DNA of 64,000 nucleotides from Pacificibacter sp. (GCF_039769035.1 NZ_JBDMZG010000023.1:4429-68428), one strand, 5' to 3'; positions 11,017-63,160 are shown, numbered from the stretch's first letter. Notes: generated from the sequence alone by a model not told the origin. Program-made: numbers and translations.

Positions 11017-11989
<973 letters not shown>

Positions 11990-35569: not shown

Positions 35570-36470
35570 CTAAAGCGTGCATTTCAATCGAGGAAATTTA
35601 CGGCGGTTGCGCCTTCCCGCAAACACTTGAACCGACAACCCGCCCTTAAAACGGCGGGTGTTGTTGTTTTGGGGGTCTGTGAGATCTAAGATTGCAGCCA
35701 ATTCCCCAAAGAGTTCAATCATATGACCATCATCAGCTGCTTCATCCGGATGCAGGCGCACCTTTGGAACAAGGCTACGAAGTAGCTCTGAGGCTTCAGA
35801 TCTGTTCGTCTCGTCATTGAGGCTGTCCGACAAGGCGGTGATCTTCTTGCTGTAGGTCTCTGCGAGGGCAGGGTGTAGCACAATTGGATCTTGTTCGGGC
35901 AGGGCTGCGAGCTTTGCTGTTAACTCGGTTTTGCGCGCCTCTAGGGCATCCATTTTTGTCTTCATAGAGGCGTGGAACATGCCCGCTGTGATGGCGTAAA
36001 CGATCTTCTGGATCTGCACGCCGAGCTGTTTGAGCTCACGTTCAATGGAGCTTCGCGCTGATGTGCTCTCGCTGTGCAGTCGGTTCCATTCCCTTTGATA
36101 TTCCGTGACGAACTCCTTGAGCAGCTCTGGATGCATCAGCTTGGATTTGAGGCCACTCAGAATACGCTCTTCAACACTCTCGCGTTTGATGAGCTTGCGG
36201 TTGTCGCAAGTGCCTTTATTGAGAGCGGAAGCGCAGCCGTATTTGGTCTTGTTCATCAGGGTATAGGAGCCACCGTAGTGGCCACACTTAAGAAGACCTG
36301 AAAACAGGTGTTTGGTACGTTTTGCTCGAGCGAGTGGATTGCTATCGTTGGTCTGCTGGGCTTCGCTCAATGTTGATCTGATCACGCCTTGGCGCCGCTT
36401 GATCCGTTGCCACATATCAGCTTCGATCAGGCGAAGGTCTGGTACTGCGTTTTTCAAGTGGCCGCCTCCC
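35570..36470 (-). pseudogene. Large serine recombinase, C-terminal remnant (Zn-ribbon and coiled coil; catalytic domain lost)
   Basis: VPDLRLIEADMW, HLFSGLLKCGHYG (CxxC degraded), YGC..KGTCDN, LHPALAETY and IELFGELAAIL; the upstream sequence is not recombinase-like. Confidence 0.8.
35601..35625 (+). repeat. att-like 25-bp repeat, copy 1
   Basis: CGGCGGTTGCGCCTTCCCGCAAACA; 23/25 identical to 63136-63160; lies inside the recombinase 3' end. Confidence 0.7.
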
Positions 36471-36699
36471 AGTCCTGTCCAACGTCGCTGCGCAATGTCA
36501 ATTATGTTGTTAGGTTTCGACAATGGGCCAAACATGAAGACTTAAACTTTTGTGGCACAGTTTGTACGCTAAATGGGTCAGCCGCAGCCCGCTCTCAATC
36601 AAAAAATCTATGGACGCGATTTCCAAAGAATCGCCGCATTCTGTGCGGTTTGCTGAACGCACGTCGTCCATTTGCGTCAACAGCTCTTGCTGCTCGTGA

Positions 36700-37379
36700 C
36701 ACATCCCTCGTAATTACCCCGGAAGTCGCCTTAATCGCGTCGTGAGTCGGAAAAACCCCCATGAGCAAGGCCATAAGAAGTTCGACCGAATTAAGGCGGG
36801 AGCCGATTATGCGGAAACGCCCAACCGATCCGTTATACAGCTGCATCAAGACCTGCCCGCTGAGATTGCCGCACGGCAAGCTGAGCTCAACGCAAAGGAA
36901 GCAAAGCGTCTGAAAACATATGAGGCGCCTCGCGAAGAAACAAGAAGAACAGACCAAAATCGAGCCACGTCAAATGGACCTGATGACCCAAATGAAAAGT
37001 GCCGAAACGGAACTCCAAAAGGGGCGCGAGCAGATGGCTCAGAAAAAGGCGGAGGCGCTCAGATAATTCCATGAGGCCAACACCTGTCTTGCTGCAATCG
37101 AAGCCGTTGCAGCTGAGTTTGAAGCGAGCAACATTGGCTGAGATGAGCAGGGCAAGTTAAAGGTGAACGATGCGTCAAACCAAAGGCATTGCCTGTAGGC
37201 TCGCCAATATCGCGAAACGTTTCGTGGACCATCGCGCTCGTCTCGAGCGCAAAGAGCGGCTTTTTGGCTGGCTGACCGTAGCGCTTCGTACGTTTTTGAA
37301 ACGGGATGATTTGACGGAAAGCGCGCGTGTGGAGGCTGAGGCATTGCAGATAGAACTGGATGAGGGGCTGGAAGTTTAG
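36700..37379 (+). pseudogene. Fragmented coiled-coil gene, possibly a mobilisation/relaxase C-terminus
   Basis: Consecutive helical, charged fragments in shifting frames (36742-37074, MDLMTQMKSAETELQKG..., 37170-37379) next to the recombinase remnant; family not firmly recognised. Confidence 0.3.
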
Positions 37380-37384
37380 ATCAA

Positions 37385-37406
37385 GTGGCACAGTATTAGG
37401 AGGCCA
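37385..37406 (+). mobile_element. Isolated IS3-family (IS407-group-like) right inverted repeat
   Basis: GTGGCACAGTATTAGGAGGCCA is 20/22 identical to the reverse complement of the IS end at 62450-62471. Confidence 0.7.
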
Positions 37407-37709
37407 AGACAAAGCAATTGATCTAACGCGCCTAAAGCGAATACTGCATCGCCTAGCGCTTCGGCGCAGCCAGTGCTAAAAACACCTGACCTCAATGAGT
37501 TAAGTTTGCAGATCAAGACAGGGGATGTCGCAATGTTCTTAACTTGGTAAGATACTGTATTGAAGATATACTGTCCTAAAAGCCAGCCCTGCTATGTATT
37601 CATTTAGTGCCCCAAAAGTTTGCATTGACTTTGCGGGTCTTATGGCGGGCGTAAATGTAAACGTCATAGATGCTATGAAGGTGGCTATGTGGCCAAGAAA
37701 CGAGCGACA

Positions 37710-38399
37710 ATGAGAGTCACGTACAAAGAAGTCAAAGCGGATATCTTGGCTAAGATTGTCAGGGGCGATTGGGGGCCGGGCGAATTGGTTCCCAACGAAA
37801 TGGATCTGACGGAAACCTACAATTGCGCCCGCGCCACAGTGAACCGCGCGATGCGCGAGCTTGCGGATGAAGGCATTATTGAGAGACGCCGCAAAGCAGG
37901 CACGCGCGTGCGCGAGACCCGCATTCTTCAGGCCAAATTTGATATTCCAGTGTTGCGCAACGAAATCGAAGCGCTCAACGCGGAATACAGATATTCATTG
38001 GTGTCTAGTAGCGTTGAAAACGCGCCTGATTGGCTGCGAGCGCGCCTGCAATTGCCCAAGGCAGCAGATGTACTGCATCTCATTTGCATGCACTATGCAG
38101 ACGGAAACCCATATCAATACGAAGATCGCTGGATCAATCTTGATGCGTTGCCGCAAGCGAGAGAGATTGATTTTTCCAAACTCGGTCCAAATGATTGGTT
38201 GATGAGTGAAATACCATACTCAGAAGCTGAAATTAGCTTTTCTGCAGCATTGGCAGACAAAGAGATGACTGAGTTTTTGGAATGTGCTGTAGGGGATCCG
38301 ATTTTCATCGTCGAGAGATCTACGTGGCACGCTGAGCAAGCGATGACCTATGTTAGGTTGTCGCACAAGCCTGGGCACCGGATGACAACGCGCTATTGA
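37710..38399 (+). CDS. hutC: Histidine utilization repressor (GntR/UTRA)
   Basis: wHTH PNEMDL..CARATVNRAMREL..RRRKAGTRV plus UTRA YEDRWINL; convergent with hutU. Confidence 0.85.
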   Translation: MRVTYKEVKADILAKIVRGDWGPGELVPNEMDLTETYNCARATVNRAMRELADEGIIERRRKAGTRVRETRILQAKFDIPVLRNEIEALNAEYRYSLVSSSVENAPDWLRARLQLPKAADVLHLICMHYADGNPYQYEDRWINLDALPQAREIDFSKLGPNDWLMSEIPYSEAEISFSAALADKEMTEFLECAVGDPIFIVERSTWHAEQAMTYVRLSHKPGHRMTTRY

Positions 38400-38428
38400 T
38401 ATCGCAAGCCCTAAGGCGCCCATAGAAA

Positions 38429-38452
38429 ATGGCGGACCCGAAGGCCCGCCAT
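38429..38452. terminator. Terminator between hutC and hutU
   Basis: ATGGCGGACC-CGAA-GGCCCGCCAT hairpin (one mismatch). Confidence 0.55.
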
Positions 38453-38473
38453 CTCGACGAAATGTCGCTCTAT

Positions 38474-40144
38474 TTACCCAAGAATACCGGGCAGATTTAG
38501 ATCATGCGCGCGGGCACATGCTTTGGCGTCATCATAGCCCGCATCGGCGTGACGCATGACACCTGTGGCCGGATCGTTCCACAAGACACGTTCAATGCGG
38601 CGATCCGCATCCTCAGAGCCGTCACAGCAAATCACCATGCCGGAGTGTTGCGAAAAGCCTATGCCAACGCCGCCGCCGTGGTGTAATGACACCCAAGTCG
38701 CGCCTGAAGCTGTGTTTAGAAGCGCATTCAAAAGCGGCCAGTCCGATACAGCATCTGAGCCGTCCATCATCGCCTCTGTTTCGCGATTGGGGGAGGCGAC
38801 CGATCCTGAGTCGAGGTGGTCGCGGCCAATCACGATCGGCGCGCTGAGCTCGCCAGTGCGAACCATTTCGTTGAAGGCAAGACCTAGCTTGTGGCGAATG
38901 CCCAAACCAACCCAGCAGATGCGTGCAGGCAAGCCTTGGAATTCGATACGTTCGCGAGCCATATCGAGCCAAGTGTGCAGATGCTTGTCCTCGGAAAGAA
39001 TTTCCTTAACTTTGGCGTCTGTTTTGTAGATGTCCTCTGGATCACCAGACAGCGCCGCCCAGCGGAACGGACCGATGCCGCGGCAAAAGAGCGGACGGAT
39101 ATATGCTGGAACGAAGCCTGGGAAATCAAAGGCGTTTTCAAGACCTTCTTCAAGCGCAACCTGGCGAATGTTGTTGCCGTAATCAAACGTAGGAATGCCC
39201 AGTTTCTGGAAATCGATCATCGCTGCTACATGCGCTTTCATCGAGGCGCGGGCGGCAGCTTCTACAGCCTTCGGATCGCTTTCGCGTTTCTCTTTCCATT
39301 GCGCCATGCTCCAACCTTGGGGCAGGTAACCGTTGATTGGGTCATGCGCAGAGGTTTGATCTGTGACCATATCTGGACGCACGCCGCGCTTTGCGATTTG
39401 CGCAAAGACATCTGCCGCATTGCCCAAAAGGCCAACAGATTTTGCTTCACCAGCGGCGGTCCATTTTTCGATCAACGCCAAAGCTTCGTCCAACGTATCG
39501 GCGCGCTCATCTACATAACGGGTGCGCAGGCGGAAATCGATGCTGTCTGGGTTACATTCAACAGCCAAGCAGCATGCGCCTGCCATAACTGCCGCCAAAG
39601 GTTGCGCGCCGCCCATGCCGCCAAGGCCGCCTGTGAGGACCCATTTGCCCGTCAGATCGCCGCCGTAATGTTGGCGACCAGCCTCGACGAAGGTTTCATA
39701 CGTCCCCTGCACGATGCCTTGGGAGCCGATGTAAATCCAAGAGCCGGCCGTCATCTGGCCGTACATGGCCAAGCCCTTTTTATCGAGCTCATTGAAGTGA
39801 TCCCAATTTGCCCAATGCGGTACGAGGTTGGAGTTAGCGATCAAAACGCGTGGGGCGTCTTTGTGGGTTTGGAACACGCCGACAGGCTTTCCAGACTGCA
39901 CCATCAACGTTTGATCTTCTTCAAGGTTTTTCAGTGCCTCAACGATGAGATCAAAATCTTTCCATGTGCGCGCAGCGCGCCCGATACCGCCGTACACCAC
40001 CAGTTCATGGGGGTTTTCGGCTACATCAGGATGGAGGTTGTTCATCAACATCCGCATCGGCGCTTCGGTCAGCCAGCTTTTGGCAGTGATGTCAGAGCCC
40101 GTCGCGGGGAAAATATCACGGGTGTTCTTGTGGGGATCGCTCAT
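38474..40144 (-). CDS. hutU: Urocanate hydratase
   Basis: [62 protein letters not shown] and [18 protein letters not shown]. Confidence 0.97.
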
Positions 40145-40941
40145 GATGTGCCTTTCGGGAAAGGGGCCAATTCGGCCAGTTTGGTCAAAATTGATTGGAG
40201 GTGAGGACGCAGCTTTGCGGCTTTTTCCTCGTCATAAGTCCAAGGGCTTGTCTCAGATTGCAGATACATGCTTTGCGCCAATTCCATTTGGATCGCGTGA
40301 AAACCTTCTGCAGGGCGGCCATAAGCGCGGGTCGTCCAGCCGCCTTTAAAGCGGCCATTGGTGACTGAGGAATAACCTTCTGCAGCGGCGCAAATGTCTT
40401 GGGTGATTTGCGCGACCTTCGGATCGCATGTGGTGCCTAGATTCGTCCCGATGTTGAAGTCGGGCAGGGTGCCTTCGAACAGAAAAGGGATGTCCGATCG
40501 GATCGAATGGCAGTCATACAGAATGACAAAACCATGTAGGCTCTTAACACGCTCAAGTTCGGCCACAAGGGCGGCGTGATAGGGCGCATGAAAAGCCAGA
40601 CGACGTGTTTCATTAGTCGCAGCATCGGGTGCCTTGTCCCAAATATCATGGCCGTCAAAGTCAGTGAGCGGCACCAGACCTGTCGTGTTTTGGCCAGGGT
40701 AGAGCGACACACCAGAGGGATCACGATTGGCGTCCACAACATAGCGGTGAAACGTTGCGCGCACAGTCGTGACGTCGGGCAAGAGGCCCTCATAGAGCGT
40801 GTGAATGTGCCAATCCGTATCATCCAATCCGCGCCCGCGGTCGTTGAGATCCGCCAAAACATCCTCTGGTACATAAGTTCCTGTGTGTGGCAGGCCCAAA
40901 ACGATCGGGCTATCACCTTGTGTGATTTCTACGGGTGTCAT
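40141..40941 (-). CDS. hutG: N-formylglutamate deformylase
   Basis: [40 protein letters not shown] and HAIQMELAQ. Confidence 0.93.
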
Positions 40942-41033
40942 GGTGTCATCTCCTGCGTGTCGCTGGCTGCTGTGGTAATGTCCTCGGATGCGATCATTGT
41001 TGCCGCCTCAGACTTAAAAGGCTGCGGGCTCAC
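40938..41033 (-). pseudogene. 31-codon ORF at the hutH position, probable in-frame deletion scar of hutH
   Basis: GTG overlaps the hutI stop (GTGA) behind GGAGG; TGA overlaps the hutG start (ATGA); translation [31 protein letters not shown]. Confidence 0.55.
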
Positions 41034-42241
41034 AATTTGCCTCCGAAAATACGCGCGTGAAGTGGGTTGAAGCCAATCCGATAAGAGAGTTCGGCTGGGT
41101 GTTTGATGTCCCAAACGGCCATGTCAGCACGCATGCCAACAGCAAGTGTGCCCGTGTCCGTTAGGCCCAAAGCACGCGCTGCGTTTTGCGTCACGCCGCG
41201 CAGGGTTTCTTCGGGTGTCATACGAAACAGAGTGCACCCCATGTTGAGGGTGAGCAGCAGCGAATTTAGGGGGGACGATCCGGGGTTGATGTCTGTCGCG
41301 AGCGCCATCGGCACCTTGTGTTGGCGCAGCGCATCGATTGGCGGCGCTTGTGTTTCGCGCAAGGTGTAGAACGCACCGGGCAGGATGACAGCAACCGTGC
41401 CCGCATCCTTCATGGCGACGACGCCGTCCTCGTCCAGATATTCGATATGGTCGGCAGACATAGCGCCATAGCGTGCAGCCAGTTTTGCGCCGCCGAGGTT
41501 GGAGAGCTGTTCAGCATGCAGCTTGACCGGTAAGCCCAGCTCCTGAGCCACATCAAACACGCGCGCGATTTGTTCAGGCTGAAAAGCGATGCCTTCGCAA
41601 AACCCGTCCACAGCGTCGACCAAGCCTTCGGCATGGGCTGCGCGTAGGGCAGGGATGCAGACATTATCGATGTACGCATCATCTCGACCGGCATATTCAG
41701 CTGGTGTTGCATGCGCGCCAAGGAAGGTCGTTTTCACACGTAAGGGGCGGTGTTTCGGGATCGCGCGGGCGACACGCAGCATGCGCAGCTCGGTCTCCAG
41801 ATCCAAGCCATAACCAGATTTCACTTCAATACATGTGACGCCTTCTGCAATCAAAACATCCACTCGGCGCAAGGCATCGCGAAGCAGGTCTTCTTCGGTT
41901 GCAGCGCGTGTGGCATTGACCGTCGATACAATCCCGCCGCCTGCGCGTGCGACCTCTTCATAGCTGGCGCCACTCAGTCGCATCTCGAACTCTGCTGCGC
42001 GGTCGCCGCCATGTACAATATGCGTATGGCAATCGATCAGCCCAGGGGTGACGAGGCGACCACCAAGGTTGGTTTCAGGCAGAGCTTTATACTGTTCAGG
42101 GATCTTGGACTGAGGTCCGATCCAATCGATAACCCCGTCCACGACTGGCACTGCTGCATCTTCGATCAGTCCGTATGGCGCGTCTGTTTCACCCATTGTC
42201 ACAAGATTCAGGTGGGAGAAGAGTCTGTTGTCTTTCGGCAT
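41030..42241 (-). CDS. hutI: Imidazolonepropionase
   Basis: [41 protein letters not shown] and [10 protein letters not shown]. Confidence 0.96.
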
Positions 42242-42268
42242 TATCAATCCGGTTTGGCTAAGAATATA

Positions 42269-42312
42269 CATTTAAGGTATGCAAAGATATGCTTTATGTC
42301 TATACATAAAGC
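42269..42312. promoter_or_regulatory. HutC operator box 1 within a duplicated 40-bp promoter block
   Basis: GCTTTATGT-CTAT-ACATAAAGC palindrome with core TATGTCTATACATA upstream of hutI. Confidence 0.8.
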
Positions 42313-42445
42313 GGGCTCCGAGTTGATTTTCTTAGACAGTCGACACTCTCTTGTCAGCCTCGGGAAATCTGCTCAGCCATAACTTTCAACTGCCACTCGA
42401 GTATCGAGCTGCTCTCGTACTTAAAAATATTCAGGTTCAATCAAG

Positions 42446-43420
42446 ATGAATTACCGCCAAGCCGTGCTCTTCATGCCAGGGGTGCTTATTTGTTCAATCG
42501 TCGCGGCCGCCTCGCGATTTTTATCAGATCACTACAGTGCTCCCACGATGTTATTTGCGCTGCTCATTGGGTTGAGTCTGCATTTCTTGGTGGATGACCA
42601 GAAAGTGGCGCCGGGGATAAGGTTCGCGGCGGCGGATTTGTTGAAATTGGGGGTGGCATTGTTGGGGTTGCGAATCACGTTGGCTGATATTGGCGATTTA
42701 GGTGTGCAAACGATTGGTCTCGTTATTGGCGGCGTAATCTTTTCCATCTCTATCGGGATTGCGATCACGTTATTGCTTGGAAAAAATATCAGGTTCGGCG
42801 TTTTGTCTGGCGGAGCTGTTGGTATCTGCGGGGCGTCTGCGGCCTTGGCCATTTCAGCAGTGTTGCCCACGTCTGACACCAGAGAACGCGATACCGCTTT
42901 TATCGTAGTTGCCGTCACAACACTCTCTACAGTAGCAATGGTTCTCTACCCGATTTTGGGAAAACGTTTGGGATTAGACGACCAGCACATTGGGATCCTT
43001 TTAGGGCTAACAATTCACGATGTGGCGCAGGTTGTCGGTGCCGGGTTTTCGGTTTCAGAAGAAACGGGCAACATCGCAACCCTCATTAAGCTGTTTCGTG
43101 TCTCCATGCTTGTCCCAGTCATAATTGTGATCTCATTCGCGTTCCGCAAGCAAAACGCGCAATGCAATCGCAGCGGTGTTCCCTGGTTCGTTCATGGCTT
43201 CGCAATCGCTATTGTGATCAACAGTCTAGGTGTTCTTCCTGAGACGATCAGGGTGTTGCTAGCGGCGGTTTCATCATGGATGTTAGTGATTGGGATTGTT
43301 GGGATCGGGATAAAAACCTCCCTAAAAAGCTTGGGCCATGTCGGGGGTGCAGCGCTGGTTATTGTCTGCCTGGAAACCCTCCTGCTTTTTGCGGTGGCGG
43401 CTGTAATCCTTGTGCTGTGA
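42446..43420 (+). CDS. YeiH / putative sulfate exporter (TauZ/SuyZ-like) membrane protein
   Basis: LKLGVALLGLRI, GAVGICGASAALA, GLTIHDVAQVVGAG, IKLFRVSML and GIGIKTSL. Confidence 0.88.
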   Translation: MNYRQAVLFMPGVLICSIVAAASRFLSDHYSAPTMLFALLIGLSLHFLVDDQKVAPGIRFAAADLLKLGVALLGLRITLADIGDLGVQTIGLVIGGVIFSISIGIAITLLLGKNIRFGVLSGGAVGICGASAALAISAVLPTSDTRERDTAFIVVAVTTLSTVAMVLYPILGKRLGLDDQHIGILLGLTIHDVAQVVGAGFSVSEETGNIATLIKLFRVSMLVPVIIVISFAFRKQNAQCNRSGVPWFVHGFAIAIVINSLGVLPETIRVLLAAVSSWMLVIGIVGIGIKTSLKSLGHVGGAALVIVCLETLLLFAVAAVILVL

Positions 43421-43626
43421 CAGTTCAATGCAACTGTCATCGTATCGCTAAGCGATCTAGAGGCTTCTAAAATTTATCTTACGCAGGCCATGCATACTTG
43501 GAGTTTTAGGACTTAGGTCACCGCATCTTCCGTGATTTCACGGAAGGCCGTGGATGTCATTTTGCGGCGCTCAAAACGGCAAAGAAACAAGAACAGGTTG
43601 ACGGTTCAATATAACGGAGAAAACCG

Positions 43627-44211
43627 ATGCAAATTCTGAAATCAAATGCCTTGATTGATGTGCCATGGAAAAACGGCGGCGGGATCACGCGCAACATCGC
43701 GAAAGGTTTGCGTGAGGGCAAGATTGCTTGGACCATTAGCCGCGCTGATGTCGCCGAGGCTGGCCCTTTTTCTGATTTTGCAGGCATGATACGTGTGCTG
43801 ACTGTAGTGTCTGGCGGGACGATGGTTTTGGACACACCCAAAACGTCCCTCACGGCGGTGCTTTTTTCGCCAGTTCGCTTTGATGGGGCGCTGAAGGTGT
43901 TTTCGCGTTTGGAAGATGGCCCGATTACTGATCTGAATCTTATGTTTGATCCGAGCTTTTGTGACGGGGATGTCGTGGTCCACAAAGGCCCGTGCGATCT
44001 CAAAGCCACGTGTCCGGAGCACGGAGTGTTGGCGTTTCATGGGCTTGCCGGAGGCCCCTGCGTCGACGGAACGGCAATCAGCTCCGCGGATACGGCGTTT
44101 GTCACACAGCCCAACGCGATGCTTCAGTTGAAAGAAGGAGAGGCATTGCTTGAGCTACGCTTAAGCTATCTGGATCAAGACAATGCCATCAAGCTGTGCA
44201 TTGCAGATTGA
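43627..44211 (+). CDS. hutD: HutD-family protein
   Basis: PWKNGGGITRNI, ISRADV..GPFSDFAG..R and TDLNLM. Confidence 0.9.
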   Translation: MQILKSNALIDVPWKNGGGITRNIAKGLREGKIAWTISRADVAEAGPFSDFAGMIRVLTVVSGGTMVLDTPKTSLTAVLFSPVRFDGALKVFSRLEDGPITDLNLMFDPSFCDGDVVVHKGPCDLKATCPEHGVLAFHGLAGGPCVDGTAISSADTAFVTQPNAMLQLKEGEALLELRLSYLDQDNAIKLCIAD

Positions 44212-44353
44212 TCGGCTAAGCGAACCTGACCGCGGTTATCCTTGCAAGCAAATGGCTCGGCAAGGCTGCATCGCCCGCTCTTCTAGGCCTTCTGGCTATC
44301 AAAGAGTGGGGTGCGAAACTTGCAGGCCAAGTTTTGGTTTCTGCCGAAGGCCG

Positions 44354-46456: not shown

Positions 46457-46508
46457 ATTTTCTTCTTTCGTTCGCTGGATCTGGCGGTTTGACACCGCCG
46501 GATGTGAC

Positions 46509-47699: not shown

Positions 47700-47713
47700 G
47701 AGTCAATTCCCTC

Positions 47714-48874: not shown

Positions 48875-48884
48875 GTATTTTGAA

Positions 48885-50811: not shown

Positions 50812-50831
50812 CATTATGTCTGCACATAATG
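50812..50831. promoter_or_regulatory. HutC operator box 2, in the SBP / lyase-1 divergent region
   Basis: CATTATGT-CTGC-ACATAATG; core TATGTCTGCACATA is 12/14 identical to boxes 1 and 3. Confidence 0.7.
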
Positions 50832-51099
50832 AGACTTAAGCAATTAACGACCTGTCAATAAATGGTTGAAAGCACACAGAACGGAAAATCTTGATTTAAT
50901 TCACAACAAGTCAAGTTAACCATTTGAAATATAAGTATTAATAATATTGCGAATGCGGAGGGTATGCTCATTTTTTGAGCTGATTTTGAGAGTTGTCACG
51001 CAAAAACGCAATTTTGCTCGCATTTAGCACATGTTGAACCCCGCATTTCCCACATAAGAATTGCTGAGTTTTATACTTCTCAGGATGACCGGAGCGACG

Positions 51100-53473: not shown

Positions 53474-53578
53474 AGGGCCAGTATTGGCATAAGAAAAACT
53501 TGTGCAATGCCCAATTTTTCTAGAATCACGTTTTTCTTGAAAGCGCGTAATCTGTTCCAAACTGAATTGGAGGAAACG

Positions 53579-54589: not shown

Positions 54590-56115
54590 AAGCGCTGAGA
54601 TTAGACGGTTCAAACTTGACTGTTGGCGTCTTGGCGCGAGCGGCTTGTGGGGAATACCAAGTCGAGCTTTCAGACACGGGCTTAGAACGCATGCGCCGCG
54701 CGCGAGCACTTGTGGACCGCGTGATCGAACAGCGCGTTCCTGTCTACGGTGTGACAACTGGCCTTGGGGCCAGATCATCCGAAGCGCTCGATGCGCACAC
54801 CTTGCAGGAATTCTCAATCCAAACTCTGCGTGGGCGGGCGCAAGCGATGGGGTCAAAGGCGCCCCGCGAAATTGTGCGCGCCGCCATGATCGTCAGGGCG
54901 AACACAATGCTGACGGGATATAGTGGCGCTCGGCCGCAAGTCGCGCTGCATCTAGCGGCCTGTCTGAATGCCAATTTGACCCCTGTCGTTGGTGAGGTCG
55001 GCTCGATTGGCGCCGCAGATCTTGTGCAGAACGCAACGCTTGGTCTTGCTTTGATTGGCGAAGGAGAGATGCAAGATGCGTCAGGTGAAATCGGGCCGAG
55101 CGCTGATAAAATGCGTGCATACGGCATCACCCCACTGACGTTGGGGCCCAAAGACGGCTTGGCTTTGGCCAATCATACAGGCTTTTCAAGTGGAGCTGCT
55201 GCTCTGGCGTGTCATGCCGCTGAGGTTGCATTTGAAGTGGCGCAAACGGCGGCCTCTTTGTCATTAGAAGCCTTTCGCGCCAATTTAACCCCCTTCAAAC
55301 ACAGCGTGCTTGCGGCGAAACCGTTGCCCGGGCAAAGCTTGGTGGCCGCAGGGCTGAGAGCGCGCTTAGAGGGGAGTTTGCTGTGGGATGAAAAACATGC
55401 ACGCCGTCTTCAAGATCCGCTGTCCTATCGCAATATCTGCCAAATTCATGGGGCGACCGCCAGTGCCTTAGAGCAGGCTCGATTGGTCGTTGAGATTGAA
55501 GCGAACGGCTCAAGTGACAATCCGATTGCATTGATCGAAAGCGATGAGATTATCTCGTGCGGCAACTACTATACGGCTGAATTGGGTCAGGGGATTGAGG
55601 GGATAAGCCGCGCAATCGCCTCGCAGGCCATGGCTCAATTGTCGCGGATGTCCAAACTGCTTCATCCTGACTTTAGCGGGCTGCCCGCATTTTTGGCGCA
55701 GGAGAACAGTGGATCAAATGGGTTCGCTCCCGTTATGAAGACCGCCGAGGCGTGGTTGGCCAAACTCGTACATGCTGCGCAACCGGTGCCAATTTGGCCG
55801 AGCATCAATGCCAATGGGGTAGAAGATTGTCTGCCCAATTCACCACAGTCTATTTCTGCGTTGTCTACTGCGGTTGAGTGCATGCGCCATATGAATGCTC
55901 TGGAGCTTTTGATTGCTGCGCAAGCGATCGAGCTGCGTGCGTGTCAGGTTGAGATGGCGCCCTTTGTTCAAGGCACTTTCGCCATGGTGCGCACGCATGC
56001 AAAGGCTTTGACGATAGACCGCTCTTTTGGCTGCGATGTGGATGGGCTGGTGCAGGTCATGCGGGCTGGTGCAAGCTCCGCACTCTTTCCGGTGTGTGCT
56101 ATGTCGCGTAAATGA
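54586..56115 (+). CDS. HAL/PAL-superfamily lyase lacking the MIO motif (lyase 2)
   Basis: VYGVTTGLG, GYSGAR, LGPKDGLALAN, QDPLSYRNICQIHGA, SDNP and VED; GSIGAADL at 55000-55023; ATGA-coupled to the OCD gene. Confidence 0.85.
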   Translation: MKALRLDGSNLTVGVLARAACGEYQVELSDTGLERMRRARALVDRVIEQRVPVYGVTTGLGARSSEALDAHTLQEFSIQTLRGRAQAMGSKAPREIVRAAMIVRANTMLTGYSGARPQVALHLAACLNANLTPVVGEVGSIGAADLVQNATLGLALIGEGEMQDASGEIGPSADKMRAYGITPLTLGPKDGLALANHTGFSSGAAALACHAAEVAFEVAQTAASLSLEAFRANLTPFKHSVLAAKPLPGQSLVAAGLRARLEGSLLWDEKHARRLQDPLSYRNICQIHGATASALEQARLVVEIEANGSSDNPIALIESDEIISCGNYYTAELGQGIEGISRAIASQAMAQLSRMSKLLHPDFSGLPAFLAQENSGSNGFAPVMKTAEAWLAKLVHAAQPVPIWPSINANGVEDCLPNSPQSISALSTAVECMRHMNALELLIAAQAIELRACQVEMAPFVQGTFAMVRTHAKALTIDRSFGCDVDGLVQVMRAGASSALFPVCAMSRK

Positions 56116-56239
56116 GTGAATGCGATAGATAGTCGGTGATGTGTTTGGAAATCCCGCGAATGCGACCAACTCACGACAGGTAAGTACGTCTCATCTATGC
56201 GAAATACTGTTCAGTTAAACTTCGCAGAATGGGACATCT

Positions 56240-57232
56240 ATGAAACTCGAACAGAACACTGCAGCGCTCGCTGAGACGGGACGCATCTATTCGGAGAAAC
56301 ATGACAATTTAGCTGTTGGTATCGAGTGGCCGACGCTGGGTATCGCAGCGGTTTGTATTGTTCTTATGCCATTGATCACCTACTTTTCCGACAGCTTTCC
56401 CTTGGTGCTATCCGTGCTGGCGCTCGGGATTGTCCTCGCCCTTCAATCTTCTTTGCAGCATGAAGTTTTGCATGGTCACCCCTTTTCGAGCGAAGCCTTA
56501 AATGAGCTTTTGGTTTTTCTGCCTGCCGGCCTATTTGTGCCCTATCGCCGTTTTAAGGACACGCATATCCAGCATCACTATGATCCAAATTTAACTGACC
56601 CTTATGATGATCCAGAAAGCAATTTCTTGGACCCAAAAAAATGGGATCAAATGGGCCCGCTGCACCGACTGATCTATCGAATGAACAACACAATGTTTGG
56701 GCGGATGGTGCTAGGGCCTGCACTTGGTATGATCTGTTTCTACACGTCAGATTTACGCGAAATATCACGGGGAAATACACGAGTTTTGACGGCTTATGCG
56801 CTGCATTTCATTGGTTTCATTCCGTTAGCTTTCTGGCTCACTACCCTTAGTACAATGCCGTTTTGGGCCTATTTTTGTGCGGCCTATTTCGGAATGTCGT
56901 TGCTCAAAATACGAACTTTTCTAGAGCACCAAGCCCACGAGAAAGTGCCAGGGCGAACAGTTGTCATTGAAGATCGTGGGCCTTTGTCACTCCTGTTTTT
57001 GAACAATAATTTCCATTCGGTGCATCATGCCCACCCGAAGGTTGTTTGGTACCGGCTGCCGCAACTCTATGCACTGCGCCGAGAAGAGTATTTGCGCATG
57101 AACCAAGGGTATCTTTTTGAGAGCTATGGTGACGTGTTCCGACGTTTCCTCTTTAAAGCTAAAGATCCGGTCCCCCATCCACTGCGTGCCAGCCCTTGTG
57201 ACTTGGATTCAAAACAGGATTTACCAAACTGA
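56240..57232 (+). CDS. Membrane diiron fatty-acid-desaturase-superfamily protein
   Basis: His boxes QHEVLH, HIQHH and NFHSVHH; hydrophobic segments. Confidence 0.85.
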   Translation: MKLEQNTAALAETGRIYSEKHDNLAVGIEWPTLGIAAVCIVLMPLITYFSDSFPLVLSVLALGIVLALQSSLQHEVLHGHPFSSEALNELLVFLPAGLFVPYRRFKDTHIQHHYDPNLTDPYDDPESNFLDPKKWDQMGPLHRLIYRMNNTMFGRMVLGPALGMICFYTSDLREISRGNTRVLTAYALHFIGFIPLAFWLTTLSTMPFWAYFCAAYFGMSLLKIRTFLEHQAHEKVPGRTVVIEDRGPLSLLFLNNNFHSVHHAHPKVVWYRLPQLYALRREEYLRMNQGYLFESYGDVFRRFLFKAKDPVPHPLRASPCDLDSKQDLPN

Positions 57233-58047
57233 TGAGAATGACACCTAAACACGCTAGCTTGCCGATGTATGATTTCGCAGGGGTAGCGGAGGCGACGGAT
57301 CTACTTTGGTCGCACTTGAAGCGCGGACCTCTTTCTGAGTTTTACGATGCCCCTGATCGACTGACGCGAGGTATGGATCTTTGGGACCTGTGGCAGCGTG
57401 AGAACTTGTTTCTGGCGCAGACTTGCGGGTTTCCATTTGTACATAAATTACGAGGGCAGGTCGGGCTTGTGGGAACGCCGGACTACGGCGTCGTGCCAGA
57501 AAAACCCGGTTGGTACTATAGCGTGATCCTATGCCGCCAAGACGATCCACGCAGGACTTTGGCGGATTTTGAGGGGGCAAAATTTGCCCTCAATGAAACC
57601 GGTAGCCAGTCCGGATGCCATGCCTTGATGCACACGCTAAATACGCAATTCGGTACCGAAAAATTGCTGGGAGGCAGCTTGTTGACGGGCGCGCATGTGC
57701 ACTCTGCCCTCGCGGTTTTAGAAGGCGAAGCCGACATTGCGGCCGTGGATATTGTGACATGGTTGCATGTTCAGCGCGATCATCCCGAAGTGTCTGGATT
57801 AAGGGTTCTCTTGCAAACGGAGCCAACACCTGGATTACCTTATATTACGGCCAATGCACAGGATGCAGCGCAACTGGGAGAATGCATTTCTGAAGGCATT
57901 CAATCCTTACCTGCGCAGACTGCGAAAGCTCTCTTTCTGAAGGGGGTCTGGCGCTCTAGCGAGGCGGATTATGATATTATTGAGGCCCGAGCCCATGCCG
58001 CAAAAGCCGTTTTTGAAAGCTATTTTCCAAACGGTCTTGCTCATTAG
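57232..58047 (+). CDS. PhnD-like PBP2-fold protein without an obvious signal peptide
   Basis: ASLPMYD, LAQTCGFP, YYSV, ALNETGSQSG, TGAHVHSALAVLEGEADIAAVD and TPGLPYIT; TGATG-coupled to the desaturase. Confidence 0.75.
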   Translation: MRMTPKHASLPMYDFAGVAEATDLLWSHLKRGPLSEFYDAPDRLTRGMDLWDLWQRENLFLAQTCGFPFVHKLRGQVGLVGTPDYGVVPEKPGWYYSVILCRQDDPRRTLADFEGAKFALNETGSQSGCHALMHTLNTQFGTEKLLGGSLLTGAHVHSALAVLEGEADIAAVDIVTWLHVQRDHPEVSGLRVLLQTEPTPGLPYITANAQDAAQLGECISEGIQSLPAQTAKALFLKGVWRSSEADYDIIEARAHAAKAVFESYFPNGLAH

Positions 58048-58218
58048 CTGACGGTTGATATGCCGTCCTCGTTGATCTCTTTGGTGCGCATTCTGCGCCG
58101 GCTCCCTGTGTGTTGAGCGAGAGGCTTTGGGAGGCATCAATGGCGTCATGAAACTGCCTCGATATCAGGCAGTTTGCGTTTCTGCTGTTGAAAAGGCGGT
58201 ATTCTGAAGCTTATCAGT

Positions 58219-59115
58219 TTGCAGTATTTCGTAACAAATGGTGTAAAAGAAAACAAAAAGGGTGCACGCAAATTGATTGATAAACGCGATACTGTGGCGG
58301 TTTTCCGTTCAAGACTTGGAATGTTGATCACGCGCCGTCGTGAGACAACATCGGCCTTTGCGCGGCGTTGCAAGTTGGACCGGTCCGCGCTCAGTCAATT
58401 TCTTGACCCTGGATCCGTTAGGTTGCCGCGGGCGGAAACCCTGACGTCAATTGCTGTGAATGAAGGCGTGAGCATTGATTGGTTACTGGGCATCAGTCAG
58501 GACGAAGAGTCTGTTGGCGAGGTCGCCTCGCTGTTGAATGTTGAACGCGGGCAGCTCGGCACGCGCGATTCACCTTTGGCCAAATGGCACAGCGATGCGA
58601 TTGGCTACAAAATCAGATATTCGCCGTTATCAATTCCGGACCTGCTAAGGACCGAAGCCGTGACCGAATATGAGTTCGATACAAACACACGTATACAGGC
58701 TGATGTGAAACAGGGCCAATCCCGTCATCAATTGGATTACTCCCGAAAACCAGAAACCGACATGGAGACGGTTGTGCCAATGCGTCACCTGCAGGATTTG
58801 GCTTCTGGGACAGGGGCATGGGCGGGATTGAGTAGATCGCACCGCAAAGAGCAGTTCGATCATATGATTCAATTGATCGATGAGCTCTATCCCACGTTCC
58901 GCCTCTTCTTGTACGATGGCCGTGCGCATTATTGTGCGCCTTTCACCTTGTTTGGGCCAAAGCGAGCAGCTGTCTTTTTGGGAGATATGTATTTGGTCAT
59001 CAACTCCGTAGAGCACATTCGGGAATTGACCAATTTCTTTGACAATATCATCAGGCATGCCGTGGTGGGGCCTGACCGCAGCTCTGCGTGGCTCAAAGCA
59101 TTGAAGGTTCAGTAG
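58219..59115 (+). CDS. XRE-type HTH transcriptional regulator with ligand-binding C-terminal domain (start uncertain, possibly TTG at 58273)
   Basis: SAFARRCKLDRSALSQFL..RLPRAETL..SIDWLLG; YPTFRLFLYD. Confidence 0.75.
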   Translation: MQYFVTNGVKENKKGARKLIDKRDTVAVFRSRLGMLITRRRETTSAFARRCKLDRSALSQFLDPGSVRLPRAETLTSIAVNEGVSIDWLLGISQDEESVGEVASLLNVERGQLGTRDSPLAKWHSDAIGYKIRYSPLSIPDLLRTEAVTEYEFDTNTRIQADVKQGQSRHQLDYSRKPETDMETVVPMRHLQDLASGTGAWAGLSRSHRKEQFDHMIQLIDELYPTFRLFLYDGRAHYCAPFTLFGPKRAAVFLGDMYLVINSVEHIRELTNFFDNIIRHAVVGPDRSSAWLKALKVQ

Positions 59116-59121
59116 CGCCTT

Positions 59122-60498
59122 CTATGAGGCAGCTTTAGCCGCGGTGGGTGTTTTTAACATGCCCCATGCTGCATAAGCGCTAATCAAGCATAGGATACAG
59201 CCAACCCAAAGCGCCAAAATGAAGCCACTATGAGCGCCCTCCAGTGGTTGGCCGACATCGGTGAACGTCACCCCCAACAGCGATCCGGCCAATAGCGCAC
59301 CAACACGTGCGACTGCTGTGTTGACGCCAGAAGCGATGCCAGACATCCGTGTTTCGACACTGTTTAAGGCGGATGTTGTTAAGGGGGCGACGACAATGCC
59401 CATGCCGATTGCCAGCAGGCATTCTCCGGGTAAAATCGCAGCCCAAGGATGTATTGGATGGAGTGGCAGCTGTGCGAGCGAAGCAAACCCAGTACCGACA
59501 ATGAGCGCACCTGAGGTGAGAACTGCGCGTTCTCCATATCTCATGGCTAAGCGCGTTCCGCCTTTGGAAATTACCCCAATGATCACGGAAAAGGGCATCA
59601 AAATTGCGCCTGCACCAGTCCCACTAAAGCCGTAAATCGTAATCAGCACATAGGGGAAAGAAATCAGGAAGCCACCTATCGCCATGTATAGGAAAAAAGT
59701 GATGACGGTAATTCCTAGAAAATCGCCCTCACGAAACAGTCTTATGGGCAGCATCGCGTAATCGGCTTTTTGGTGCTCAACTTTGATCAGCAGGCCACCC
59801 AAGACGAGTGCTCCGATGAACTGCGCCAGTGATTTTAGCAGGTGGGGCGAAGCGCTTGTTGCATCTGTGAGCCACCAAATGAGCGTGGCGAGAAAAAGTG
59901 AGGCAAGCAGTGTGCCTTGCCAGTCGAGCGATGATGCCTGCTTTTCATCGTCTTGTTTTGAGGCGATGTAAACGTGTCCCAAAATGAGGGTGATCAACCC
60001 TAATGGGACAAAGAGGCCCAAACACACACGCCACCCAAATGCATCAATGATCCAGCCGGCAAGAAGCGGGGCGGCGGCCCCCAAAATCGCTGTGGCTGCA
60101 GACCATGTGCCGATGGCACGGGCGCGGGCATCGCCTGTGTGGGTAATGGCAAGGATAGCCAGACTGGAGGGCACAATAAGAGCAGATCCAACGCCTTGTA
60201 CAAACCGCGCTATGAGCAGGGTTGTAAAATGAGGGGCAACAGCTGATGTGAGGCTGCCGGCTGTGAAGAGCCACAGCCCCAAGCTGAAGACTCGTTTGTG
60301 CCCAAAGTGATCCCCCAAGGCACCGCCTGTTAAAATGAGAGCGCCAAGCGGCAACATAAAGCTCGTGACAATCCACTGTAGTTGCGTTGGAGAGAGACCA
60401 AATTCTTGCTGTATGCTCGGTAGGGCGAGATTGGCAACGACGACGATTATGAGCGTCAGTGCTGATGCAAAAATTGAGGTGATCAAGATGGGGTTCAT
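59122..60498 (-). CDS. MFS efflux transporter, DHA2-like
   Basis: ALPSIQQEF, LQWIVTSF, GALGDHFGHKRVF, ARFVQGVGSAL and ASGVNTAVARVG. Confidence 0.88.
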   Translation of the reverse strand: MNPILITSIFASALTLIIVVVANLALPSIQQEFGLSPTQLQWIVTSFMLPLGALILTGGALGDHFGHKRVFSLGLWLFTAGSLTSAVAPHFTTLLIARFVQGVGSALIVPSSLAILAITHTGDARARAIGTWSAATAILGAAAPLLAGWIIDAFGWRVCLGLFVPLGLITLILGHVYIASKQDDEKQASSLDWQGTLLASLFLATLIWWLTDATSASPHLLKSLAQFIGALVLGGLLIKVEHQKADYAMLPIRLFREGDFLGITVITFFLYMAIGGFLISFPYVLITIYGFSGTGAGAILMPFSVIIGVISKGGTRLAMRYGERAVLTSGALIVGTGFASLAQLPLHPIHPWAAILPGECLLAIGMGIVVAPLTTSALNSVETRMSGIASGVNTAVARVGALLAGSLLGVTFTDVGQPLEGAHSGFILALWVGCILCLISAYAAWGMLKTPTAAKAAS

Positions 60499-60713
60499 GC
60501 GCCGTGTGAAAGTCAATGAGTGCTCCCTAATTGCTACGCAGCAATTCGTTGAGTTGAAATATAGGTCTAGAAAAGAGCTGCGCTATTAAACGACGTGCCG
60601 CACAGTTTCAAAACAGGTGAATGTCCGACTTCATGTTGTGACTTCACATGGTTGAGTGCGCAGTAGCACAGATTTTCGCGCTGATTTAAAACTTCACTAT
60701 GGCAAAAAAATTC

Positions 60714-60753
60714 CATTTAAGGTATGTGCTGATATGAGTTATGTCTATACATA
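60714..60753. promoter_or_regulatory. HutC operator box 3 / second copy of the 40-bp block
   Basis: CATTTAAGGTATGtgctGATATGagTTATGTCTATACATA; 34/40 identical to 42269-42308; upstream of hutF. Confidence 0.8.
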
Positions 60754-60768
60754 TAAACAGAGGTTGAA

Positions 60769-62127
60769 ATGATTTTTGCAAAGCAAGCACTGCTTTCAAG
60801 TGGATGGGCGTCAGGTGTTCGCCTCGATGTGACGCAGGGGACGATCACAAAAATTGAAACGCAGCAGCAGGCTCACGCAGGTGATGTGACAGTCGACACC
60901 CTCTTGCCTGCCTTGGCAAATCTACACAGTCACAGCTTTCAGCGGGCTATGGCAGGAATGACCGAATACCGCATGGCTGGTAAGGACAGTTTCTGGACGT
61001 GGCGCGATTTGATGTACAAGTTCACCTCAACGATATCAGCTGAACAAGTCGAGGCAATTGCAGCCTTTGTGTTCTTGGAAATGCAAGAGGCGGGCTATGC
61101 CAGCGTTGGTGAGTTTCACTACCTTCACCACCAACCGGGCGGCATGCCTTATGATGATCTTGGCGAACTGTCGTCCCGCATCGCATCCGCGGCAGATGTG
61201 ACCGGCATTGGCCTAACACATCTCCCAGTTCTCTATACATATGGCGGGGCTGGGCAGGTGCCGCTCAAAGCAGGACAGGCGCGTTTCGGAAACTCTGCCG
61301 ATCAGTTTAATGCATTGGTCGATAAAGCAAAAAACGCGGTGTCTTCCCTCGCAGATGATTGCCGCGTCGGCATCGCACCGCACTCATTGCGCGCGATATC
61401 GCCCGATGACCTCAAAGCCGTCTTGGCCGCTCGCTCCAACGGGCCAATCCATATTCATATTGCCGAACAACCCAAAGAAGTCGCTGATATTCAAGCTTGG
61501 CTCGGCGCACGTCCCGTTGAGTGGTTGCTGGCAAACACGGACGCCAATGAAGATTGGTGCCTGATCCATGCCACCCATATGACAGAAGTCGAAACAAAGA
61601 ACATGGCCCAGTCTGGCGTGGTTGCTGGCCTGTGCCCTGTCACCGAGGCCAATCTGGGAGATGGCCCGTTCAATGGACAGGCATATGTGAACCATGGTGG
61701 AGCCTTTGGTGTCGGATCTGACTCCAATGTTCTGATCTCATTGACGGAAGAGCTGCGTACTTTGGAATATTCGCAACGTCTGCGTGATGTTGCGCGAAAC
61801 ATCATGGTCAAAGGTGAGGGCTCCGTTGGGGCGAAACTCTATTGTGGTGCAGCAAAGGGCGGCGCGCAGGCGCTGAGCCGTCAAGCGGGCGACATTTCCG
61901 TTGGAAACCTCGCAGATCTTGTAGCCATCGACAGCACGGCGCCGGCACTCTGCGCGCTACGCCAAGATCAAATCCTCGATGGTCTTGTGTTCGCAGCGAA
62001 GGATACAGTCGTGACAGATGTTTGGTCCGCTGGCAGACACGCGGTGCAAACTGGCCGCCATGTGAAACGGGATGAGATCACTGCAGCCTACACCTCAGCA
62101 ATGCACGCTTTGGTGGCCTCGCTCTGA
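60769..62127 (+). CDS. hutF: Formimidoylglutamate deiminase
   Basis: NLHSHSFQRAMAGMTE, SFWTWR, GEFHYLHH, HIHIAEQPKEV, CPVTEANLGDG and GSDSNV. Confidence 0.96.
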   Translation: MIFAKQALLSSGWASGVRLDVTQGTITKIETQQQAHAGDVTVDTLLPALANLHSHSFQRAMAGMTEYRMAGKDSFWTWRDLMYKFTSTISAEQVEAIAAFVFLEMQEAGYASVGEFHYLHHQPGGMPYDDLGELSSRIASAADVTGIGLTHLPVLYTYGGAGQVPLKAGQARFGNSADQFNALVDKAKNAVSSLADDCRVGIAPHSLRAISPDDLKAVLAARSNGPIHIHIAEQPKEVADIQAWLGARPVEWLLANTDANEDWCLIHATHMTEVETKNMAQSGVVAGLCPVTEANLGDGPFNGQAYVNHGGAFGVGSDSNVLISLTEELRTLEYSQRLRDVARNIMVKGEGSVGAKLYCGAAKGGAQALSRQAGDISVGNLADLVAIDSTAPALCALRQDQILDGLVFAAKDTVVTDVWSAGRHAVQTGRHVKRDEITAAYTSAMHALVASL

Positions 62128-62449
62128 TCCTGACAGCTTAGCTATAGCTCAAGCTGCCTTTTCCAAACGAAACCTCCTCCTTTGAGATCCCCTTACTCTG
62201 GCCGGGTCAGGGGCAGGGTATCCTTCCAATCAAAGCGCCCGCGAGCCTTCTCTTTGCACCGAAATATTGAGAGCGGCAGCTAGAAGGCTCAAGCGTGCTA
62301 AAGGAAGACGCAAAGATCTTGGTCCGGCATCAAGATTATGACCGTTCCGCGAGCTGCATTTGAAGCTGTCTAGGGAATTCTAGCTGAAGATCTTCTACTT
62401 CTCGACTCTGCCTTTCGTTTAGACCACTGCCAAGAAGAACCGGGAGGCT

Positions 62450-62800
62450 TGGCCCCCTAAAACTGTGCCACTATTTGTTGATAGCAGGAGTTTAGAGGCA
62501 TGGCATTTAAACTGTATTCTGATGAATATGCGCTAAGGCTGTCGCGCGAGATTGATGTTCATTTGCACGATGGTATGGATGTTGCTGGAGCTGTCCGCAA
62601 GGCTGGGATTTCGGATAAGAACTATGACTACTGGCGCAAGAAGTGTGGAGGGATGGCGAGACCACAACTTTCTGAGATGAAGGTTCCCAAAACAGAGAAT
62701 GAAATTTTAAAGAGGATCGTCGTGGATCTACAATTTGATAAGGTGATTTTGAAGGAAAGTTTCGATTATCTAAAGCTTCTAGGCGTTGACGTCAGAGACA
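62450..62800 (+). mobile_element. Truncated IS3-family (IS407-group-like) element: left IR plus degenerate orfA
   Basis: TGGCCCCCTAAAACTGTGCCAC, then GGAG and orfA YSDE..AGISDKNYDYWRKKCGGM..EN..LK.IV.DL..DK.ILKE; no orfB. Confidence 0.8.
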
Positions 62801-63135
62801 CTCCCCAAGATACTGATCTGTTTTGGATTCACCAATTCAACTAGCTCCTTTCAAACACACGCTTGCAATCAAATCAATTGGCGACCCTTTACCGTCTAGT
62901 GGACCTTCTTCGGGTAGATTTCTCAGGGTGTTCGTTACTTTCACCTTGCCCAAAGTAGGGCCTTCCCACTGCCTGCGGTAACCACACACAGGCCCTCCCG
63001 CTGCGCTTCCGCGGGCCTAAGCTATGTCGAGAGGGGAATTATTTTACGCCGTGGTCGTTGGCGGCGTTCGCAGTGAGAGAGGTCTTGTCGTCGGTCACAT
63101 TAGGTTAAACAACACATTTTAACTTTGGTCGGCTT

Positions 63136-63160
63136 CGGCGGTTGCGCCCTCCCGCAACCA
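63136..63160 (+). repeat. att-like 25-bp repeat, copy 2, ending in CCCGCAACCA (tRNA-fMet-like 3' end)
   Basis: The antisense frame reads LVAGGRNRRSRPKLKCVV*, homologous to the recombinase tail VFAGRRNRRKFPRLKCTL*, but an in-frame stop lies a few codons upstream. Confidence 0.7.

Follow-up and report, generated by a model that had tools for sequence, protein, structure and literature searches.

Staphylococcal cassette chromosome (SCC) islands are inserted by large serine recombinases (LSRs), the Ccr proteins, at the 3' end of rlmH/orfX; the target is regenerated, tandem arrays with short repeats build up, and old members lose their recombinase. The inducible tailed phage phiPam-6 of Paracoccus aminophilus carries a serine-family recombinase and lies at an elongator tRNA-Met, with 17-bp flanking direct repeats, CCCTCCTCCGCTACCAT, that are the 3' end of the tRNA (PMC3925955). 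C089B-type nickel islands of Mesorhizobium combine a 14-bp far-end repeat, a serine recombinase open reading frame (ORF) and mobilisation genes, often with no conjugation genes (PMC10990125), and serine-recombinase integrative and mobilizable elements have also been described in Mesorhizobium (PMC8627217). We analysed a 64,000-nucleotide stretch (the window) from the 223-contig draft genome of a Pacificibacter sp. (G000), comprising positions 4429-68428 of the 72-kb contig C122. The window very probably holds the distal two members of an LSR-built island array at the 3' terminus of tRNA-fMet, the initiator tRNA gene. Its two 25-bp repeats are real attachment (att) site junctions of an LSR island family that targets the end of this gene.

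In what follows, P and P' are the element arms, O is the 12-bp core, and B and B' are the tRNA-side flanks, so that attL is tRNA-O-P', attR is P-O-B' and the attP configuration is P-O-P'. E_left is the element to the left of repeat copy 1, and E_right is the element between copies 1 and 2 (35626-63160). The features that define the junctions are these:

1-35569, no strand given: right-hand 35.6 kb of E_left, 99.7% identical to G061, an uncultured Rhodobacteraceae isolate of a different species, in which the whole element spans about 65 kb
35570-35613, minus strand: P arm of E_left, encoding the excised-form tail (G)RRNRRKFPRLKCTL with its stop codon at 35570-35572
35601-35625, plus strand: repeat copy 1, a P-O-P' (attP-like, tandem) junction with core O at 35614-35625
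35615-36451, minus strand: truncated LSR of E_right (P' arm, zinc-ribbon and C-terminal parts), in an ORF printed as 35570-36535
36452-37688, no strand given: non-coding spacer replacing the N-terminal two domains of the LSR, with no ORF assignable to a family
63105-63148, minus strand: P arm of E_right, whose orphan tail reads (VAG)GRNRRSRPKLKCVV and stop, the ORF extending to 63158 in the core
63136-63160, plus strand: repeat copy 2, an attR (P-O-B') with core O at 63149-63160 (CTCCCGCAACCA), identical to the tRNA-fMet 3' end
63161-63221, plus strand: native tRNA-fMet downstream flank B' (61 nt), 98.6% identical to the sequence after a 46-nt tRNA-fMet fragment on contig C56

Copy 1 (CGGCGGTTGCGCCTTCCCGCAAACA) and copy 2 (CGGCGGTTGCGCCCTCCCGCAACCA) agree at 23 of 25 positions, and each comprises a 13-bp piece of arm P followed by a 12-bp core that matches the 3' end of the G000 tRNA-fMet. 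With up to three mismatches allowed, they are the sole matches in the window. A chance repeat was rejected, since none of 100 dinucleotide-preserving shuffles contained two matches, and a repeat of the tyrosine-integrase type was ruled out, since the window repeats have no more than 12 nt in common with the tRNA and lie at a serine recombinase. Copy 1 sits within the last 18 codons of the minus-strand ORF, which ends ...FAGRRNRRKFPRLKCTL and a stop, and its core (TTCCCGCAAACA) has two substitutions relative to the tRNA (TT for CT, AACA for ACCA). Copy 2 ends in CCCGCAACCA and encodes an orphan tail, ...LVAGGRNRRSRPKLKCVV and a stop (63105-63158), that runs into the core; nothing recombinase-like was found to its right. 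The tRNA-fMet of G000 (C177:19-95) ends ...TCCTACTCCCGCAACCA, and copy 2 shares with it 12 nt plus ATTCT past the CCA.

The junctions were also followed in Logan contigs and unitigs from four public seawater runs that contain the source organism (X1-X4). Unitigs from all four separate runs span copy 1 (34600-35881) with no differences, and those of X1-X3 connect the copy 2 P arm with B' by way of the core (62600-63178, 63131-63178 and 62995-63217); among the X4 unitigs listed, none crosses copy 2. Over the copy 2 core and the next 57 nt, the run-contig depth is 2-3x, with a branch into GGTTCAAATCCTA and with branches leading left to the tRNA and right to the C56 flank, a pattern that the island-array model predicts.

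Aligning the flanks of the core-carrying sites in G000 resolved four site types, with breakpoints at the core:

B-O-B', on C56: 46-nt tRNA-fMet 3' fragment, O, then 'attctctactt...'
P-O-B', copy 2: element arm 'cggcggttgcgcc', O, then the same 61 nt as C56 (98.6% over 73 nt)
B-O-P', C177:10065-10110: 46-nt tRNA fragment, O, then 'cttgaaacgacaaccc...'
P-O-P', copy 1: element arm, O, then 'cttgaaccgacaaccc...'

On C177, the P' arm has 84.6% identity to that of copy 1 and runs into the 3' end of a second minus-strand LSR, which is cut by the contig end and has 83% protein identity to the remnant in the window. The 61-nt B' is native tRNA-fMet flank, because the close relative G019 has a tRNA end followed by a C56-type flank (81%). 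Clues to the crossover can be read in the 12-bp common core and in a palindrome, GGTTGCGCC-CT-CCCGCAACC, centred on CT; both attP half-sites have G-GGTTGCG equidistant from this CT. No gene was recognised as a directionality factor, which LSRs need for excision. On C56 (19600-19806, minus strand), a second, decayed tRNA-fMet 3' end (ggggtcgtaggggcaaagccgactcctaaaacca) lies about 75 nt past the 46-nt fragment, an arrangement common to G019. Scars of earlier events thus appear to accumulate 3' of this tRNA-fMet, judging from the decayed second end that C56 and G019 share.

At copy 1, homology to the G061 attR stops at 35625 and homology to attL-type loci begins at 35615. The left element occurs alone in G061. 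There, a tRNA-fMet (C6:94-170) is followed at once by P' and an intact minus-strand LSR of 565 amino acids (aa) with Resolvase (10-150, bearing a YARYSTDLQ motif), Recombinase and Zn_ribbon_recom domains. The element then aligns with C25, the contig that precedes C122 (C6:12181-25206 with C25:4513-17541, 98.9% identity), and with C122 itself (C6:25110-65161 with C122:1-40050, 99.7% identity), and ends in a P-O at C6:65140-65164 (repeat 65153-64) with a terminator-like flank beyond it. The CCA at 35625 is the exact point at which homology to the window stops; further right, G061 and contig C94 of G000 are only about 80% identical. The P arm of E_left and its tail are the same as at this G061 attR, which a P-O motif scan of public genomes (at least 119 loci, mostly Alphaproteobacteria) had returned as L153, a locus carrying exactly the tail of copy 1. 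As the element is near-identical while the chromosomes of the two hosts are about 80% identical, E_left is, on these alignments, a discrete element of about 65 kb with its own LSR, and they point indirectly to a recent transfer. Window 1-35569 and C25 have no orthologue-level DNA match in ten genomes of the same genus (congeners). Identity varies along the element: it is 98.9-99.7% over about 53 kb of metabolic cargo (window 1-35569 plus C25) and about 90-93% in the left module (LSR, AAA-peptidase, helicase), where a 4.6-kb segment is replaced by 9 kb between G000 and G061.

The ORF that contains copy 1 encodes P0001, the C-terminal 321 aa of an LSR whose N-terminal ~283 residues are gone. It aligns to residues ~270-590 of homologues of 560-650 aa, is without the N-terminal resolvase catalytic domain that holds the serine nucleophile, and matches only Zn_ribbon_recom in Pfam (PF13408, residues 77-129), the Recombinase domain (PF07508) being almost wholly deleted. 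Full-length homologues start with a YARYS(T/S)D-Q serine-recombinase motif. At the DNA level, the remnant is 84-89% identical to LSRs abutting tRNA-fMet, and every match stops at about 36446. The ~1.2-kb spacer that follows (36452-37688) gave no match by blastn or tblastx, and the G000 assembly contains no N-terminal LSR sequence, though run reads show that it exists. By its domain content, the copy in the window is a remnant and not a functional LSR.

The association of this LSR family with tRNA-Met recurs in other genomes. Among 60 relatives, LSR homologues occur in 18 genomes, and at 8 of the 18 loci scanned for tRNAs the LSR adjoins tRNA-Met. At seven of these eight, the ORF runs antisense into the tRNA and ends ...VAG(V/A)GFEP(T/A)TFRL with a stop codon complementary to tRNA positions 34-36; the eighth (G029) is an LSR remnant interrupted by an insertion sequence (IS). 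The homologue in G036 reads, likewise antisense, into the elongator tRNA-Met instead. Across the genome collection, an antisense tRNA-Met lies at the LSR 3' end in 24 of 35 P0001-related loci, mostly from Rhodobacteraceae, and many contigs end at tRNA-Met, as expected beside an rRNA operon. A whole element can be followed in G021, from rRNA genes and tRNA-fMet through a 654-aa LSR open frame and 25.5 kb to 'gcggcggttgcgctctCCCGCAACCA' with the tail VAGERNRRNLPILACAV and a stop. In two closed congeners in which an LSR or its remnant abuts tRNA-fMet (G018 and G029), no P-O arm was found within 50-58 kb downstream.

The far ends are as regular as the near ones: among the matches listed for the P-O scan, the LSR frame reaches a stop 14-20 codons past VAG in 82 of 115 instances, most often at 17, against 13 and 3 in the other two frames. 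An LSR lies directly to the right, as at copy 1, in 19 of the 120 P-O instances among the matches listed, and about 100 are orphans. Orphan tails in these matches fall into several types: ...LPxLKCxV in Rhodobacteraceae, ...YQQGLFQAAA mostly in Rhodospirillales/Hyphomicrobiales-type records, ...SHHSTVPI in Acetobacteraceae among others, and ...YLHLDFAxx in SAR116-like and other alphaproteobacterial metagenome-assembled genomes, each before a stop. Such lineage-specific tail sequences suggest that several LSR subfamilies may share the tRNA-fMet target. At two congener loci, L006 (G015) and L007 (G020), an 84-nt piece containing a terminator separates tRNA-fMet from a P-O-P' with a full-length LSR, whose ORF reads through both cores (…VAGTRNRRS…VAGAGFEPATFRL and a stop); the 84-nt piece resembles a miniature remnant element within a tandem array.

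Up to this point the preliminary description of the window fares well. It had reported the 25-bp direct repeat, the position of copy 1 inside the 3' end of a recombinase remnant, the tail of copy 2 without a recombinase body, its match to a tRNA-fMet 3' end and the overlap of a recombinase gene with its att site; all of these hold, and loci in relatives and in the genome collection show that such genes target tRNA-fMet. The hybrid junction of two elements that it placed at 35.6 kb is likewise borne out by G061, with its left element alone at 99.7% identity and homology ending after the CCA.

It had also predicted an intact tRNA-fMet upstream of the window beside another minus-strand recombinase, and this was essentially right. 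ARAGORN detected no tRNA on C122 or on C25, which are joined by a 97-nt assembly-graph overlap. An X2 contig of 11,366 nt (depth 134) covers C25:1-5049 with its positions 6318-11366 and matches G061 C6:6422-7605 with positions 639-1822, and an X1 contig of 10,515 nt joins C6:1723-3180, 3265-4530 and 6422-7605, that is, the LSR start through the AAA-peptidase gene; run contigs thereby link C25 to the LSR-proximal module. On C177, a tRNA-fMet 3' fragment does abut a minus-strand LSR 3' end, but the LSR tail meets the 46-nt tRNA repeat, and the intact tRNA-fMet lies 10 kb further upstream, separated from the LSR by a tyrosine-integrase island. In X1-X3, the LSR body (G061 C6:435-1736) has a depth of about 2.5-3x and two variants at C6:869-1252, which indicates that at least two LSR copies with N-terminal parts exist besides the window remnant and were dropped from the draft.

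The interposed island (C177:96-10110) lies between the intact tRNA-fMet and the 46-nt repeat and carries an integrase (8719-9918, Phage_integrase plus Arm-DNA-bind_3), a primase/helicase-like gene of 737 aa and ATPase genes. In G021, a related island (82% over the primase-like gene) comes beyond the LSR element instead, so that both island orders occur. Elsewhere in G000, contig C148 has two more P-O arms (20658-20682 and 36173-36197, minus strand), with the orphan tails VAGGRNRRSLPMLKCVF and VAGGHNRRSLPVQKCII, each followed by a stop, 15.5 kb apart. Judged by ORF translation only, the genes between them resemble acyl-CoA/keto-acid dehydrogenase-type genes and include a tyrosine recombinase-like C-terminal fragment (30855-31550). 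No LSR is present on C148, which is probably another decayed array.

We propose that LSRs of this family integrate DNA into the 3' end of tRNA-fMet, the last gene of rRNA operons. The LSR gene occupies the end of its element that meets the tRNA, in the opposite orientation to the tRNA, with its last codons crossing the att site. In the integrated state (attL), the ORF runs antisense into the tRNA and ends ...VAGVGFEPTTFRL at a stop codon complementary to tRNA positions 34-36; as attP, it ends ...VAG-x-RNRR plus nine residues and a stop. This swap of tails on integration would leave an orphan tail at the far end of the element, at attR. The crossover dinucleotide is presumably the CT at the centre of the palindrome, and P' would supply the last 10 nt of the tRNA on integration. 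Each integration would regenerate a whole tRNA-fMet, and attL could therefore remain a target, the newest element coming to lie beside the tRNA and older ones being pushed distally. In the source organism, the order would run from the rRNA operon and tRNA-fMet through the 10-kb tyrosine-integrase island, the 46-nt tRNA repeat, E_left, P-O-P' and E_right to P-O-B'. E_left itself would read LSR, Mob_Pre relaxase and metabolic cargo of ~65 kb, and E_right a truncated LSR followed by a 27.5-kb histidine-utilisation (hut) island. Set against the 99.7% identity of E_left to G061, the mutated core and the LSR truncation of E_right suggest that E_right is the older, immobilised member and E_left a recent arrival.

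Two other histories would yield the same map. E_left and E_right may have been joined beforehand, as a cointegrate or dimer with an internal attP, and have entered in one integration, or E_right may have entered second, at the attR of E_left. We regard these together as improbable, although the order B-O-P' ... P-O-P' ... P-O-B' is the same under all three histories, canonical LSR rules bar attP x attL and attP x attR equally, and P-O-P' with a full-length LSR is common elsewhere, as the 19 of 120 listed instances show. A composite origin sits poorly with E_left standing alone in G061 with its own attL and attR, and with E_right being found nowhere else. It also sits poorly with the different ages of the two elements, E_left being 99.7% identical between species and E_right having a truncated LSR and a mutated core, with the newer one beside the tRNA.

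It is very hard to credit that the repeat has no att function and simply preserves the 3' ends of two paralogous recombinase genes, of which one is nearly deleted. The similarity of the copies does reach the stop codons at the protein level, and the copy 1 recombinase is itself degraded; against this, four independent comparisons put the breakpoints exactly at the tRNA-like core, the orphan tail abuts native tRNA-fMet flank, orphan tails of fixed length occur without an LSR at about 100 loci among the matches listed, and in G021 and G061 the tail lies exactly one element-length from an LSR at tRNA-fMet. An assembly chimera, a mis-binned contig or a junction made by repeat collapse in the draft deserves almost no weight: the assembly does break at k = 97 overlaps, and the copy 2 core plus 61 nt forms a 73-nt repeat with branching in the run unitigs, but this repeat is shorter than the 97-nt overlap of the assembler, the runs cross copy 1 (four, without differences) and copy 2 (three), and G061 independently shows the same P arm.

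Several points nonetheless weigh against sequential integration at the tRNA as we propose it. Canonical LSRs do not use attL, and the proposed route to a tandem array departs from the textbook scheme. No excised form was seen in the run contigs, which drop rare variants such as circles and empty sites. With its TT and AACA, the core of copy 1 may have lost its function as a site or may have lacked it from the start. E_right is found in no other genome, and only its ends suggest that it was once mobile. Past its first 61 nt the right flank is accessory DNA, and 63160 may not be the evolutionary end of the array. Along the path from C177 through the LSR to C25, one stretch, inside the LSR gene, is left unbridged by run contigs, and the tRNA-fMet copy that carries this array is one that we infer.

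Within the window, E_left carries an oxoprolinase-type operon, an acyl-CoA synthetase, an ATP-binding cassette (ABC) ATPase and a SulP transporter gene (33780-35516). This SulP is 62-68% identical to the single SulP of each congener, and the true orthologue (77-94%) lies on contig C23, which marks the island copy as a xenologue. Together with a 294-aa gene at 18414-19298, it forms a pair of divergent copies (65-70% DNA identity) of core genes that are adjacent in all congeners and on C23; in the island, the two lie 15 kb apart. The match of C25:4572-5951 to Mob_Pre is marginal (25.6 bits at a cut-off of 25.5). No type IV secretion system genes were found among the proteins scanned, the left 35 kb of the window not being fully covered by that scan. 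To the right of copy 1, the remaining features are:

37689-62127, no strand given: E_right cargo, with hutC, hutU, hutG, hutI, hutD, hutF, two aromatic amino-acid lyases and further genes by Pfam
62500-62844, plus strand: IS transposase fragment (HTH_Tnp_1), 81-83% identical to contig-end repeats in G019
63266-64000, minus strand: GT4 glycosyltransferase (Pfam), first of a GT4/GT2/GT2 cluster

The hut cluster of E_right is the only one in G000, and its hutF is just 72-75% identical to those of congeners. The cargo further includes a Dpp/Opp-type ABC importer, LysR, OCD, a desaturase and a major facilitator superfamily transporter. Two direct repeats of about 54 nt (80-81%), in 42255-42388 and 60700-60941, precede hutI and hutF and enclose 18.4 kb that may have entered E_right as a secondary insertion. 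No LSR locus with hut cargo was found elsewhere, and a codon-degenerate P-arm pattern had no match in the genome collection. The preliminary description had put the GT4 gene back in the chromosome and suggested looking for this region beside a tRNA in relatives. That view of the flank is borne out for the first 61 nt after the CCA and finds no support for the GT4 gene: no DNA counterpart of the GT cluster or of the ~10.7 kb after it occurs in the ten congeners, and in three relatives tRNAs are absent within 1.5 kb of the GT4 homologues.

The overlap of gene and att site raises a further, tentative idea, which we consider doubtful: that the LSR is made in state-reporting isoforms, the integrated and excised tails acting as a switch of activity, stability or directionality. 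The predicted isoforms end ...VAGVGFEPTTFRL and ...VAGGRNRRKFPRLKCTL, respectively, with the last 10 residues VGFEPTTFRL when integrated and the last 14 basic, x-RNRR-x-LP-x-LKC-xx, when excised or in tandem. In 21 tails of the Rhodobacteraceae subtype, mean entropy is 1.45 at codon position 3, versus 1.07 and 0.86 at positions 1 and 2. Because these tails were selected with a protein pattern and their inner part shares DNA with the attP half-site, the evidence for peptide selection is weak. A fixed tail length (about 80 loci among the matches listed) and the third-position excess would fit peptide selection, and selection on the DNA of the attP half-site would explain both as well. In integration-dependent immunity phages and in SSV-type integrases, which are tyrosine recombinase systems, attP lies within a gene and C-termini differ by state; the affected gene is a repressor in mycobacteriophages, and in SSV it is the integrase itself that is split in two. 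In the present case, the change would be confined to the last 10-14 residues of a serine recombinase. If the isoform switch is true, it would be a serine-recombinase counterpart of integration-dependent immunity.

One recombinase family would on this evidence move and stack catabolic modules behind rRNA operons in marine Rhodobacteraceae, in this case the only hut cluster of G000 and a ~65-kb block of transport and amide-/lactam-degrading genes. The orphan VAG-x-RNRR tail beside CCCGCAACCA offers a simple signature for delimiting islands in drafts that are broken at the rRNA operon. The LSRs themselves are candidate serine-integrase tools whose target, the initiator tRNA, is defined and universally conserved in bacteria, and they may tolerate a target that has already been used.

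Among the described systems, SCC differs in having its ccr genes inside the element, a protein-gene target and an unrelated LSR subfamily. phiPam-6 resembles the present elements in its related alphaproteobacterial host, its tRNA-Met site and its short repeats, the recombinases being compared by description only, and its tRNA end is exactly the one that the G036 homologue reads into. It differs from them in that here we find metabolic cargo and a relaxase, no phage genes, and the initiator tRNA-fMet after rRNA operons; its report describes neither a tandem array nor an overlap of gene tail and att site (PMC3925955). The Mesorhizobium islands, whose recombinases are again likened by description, match the architecture of E_left (LSR, Mob_Pre relaxase and cargo) and differ in genus, in cargo and in a traACD-like relaxase versus the marginal Mob_Pre here. 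Bounding repeats with a tRNA 3' end and an intact tRNA are present for E_left in G061 and for the G021 element; in E_right, a repeat marks the distal end and the P-O-P' junction serves as the proximal one. Among the papers searched, none paired 'serine recombinase' with 'tRNA-fMet', and looking for 'overlaps the attP' along with 'serine integrase' gave none containing the former phrase. LSR elements at tRNA-Met are already on record, and the state-dependent C-terminal tail is the one detail of this locus that is possibly new.

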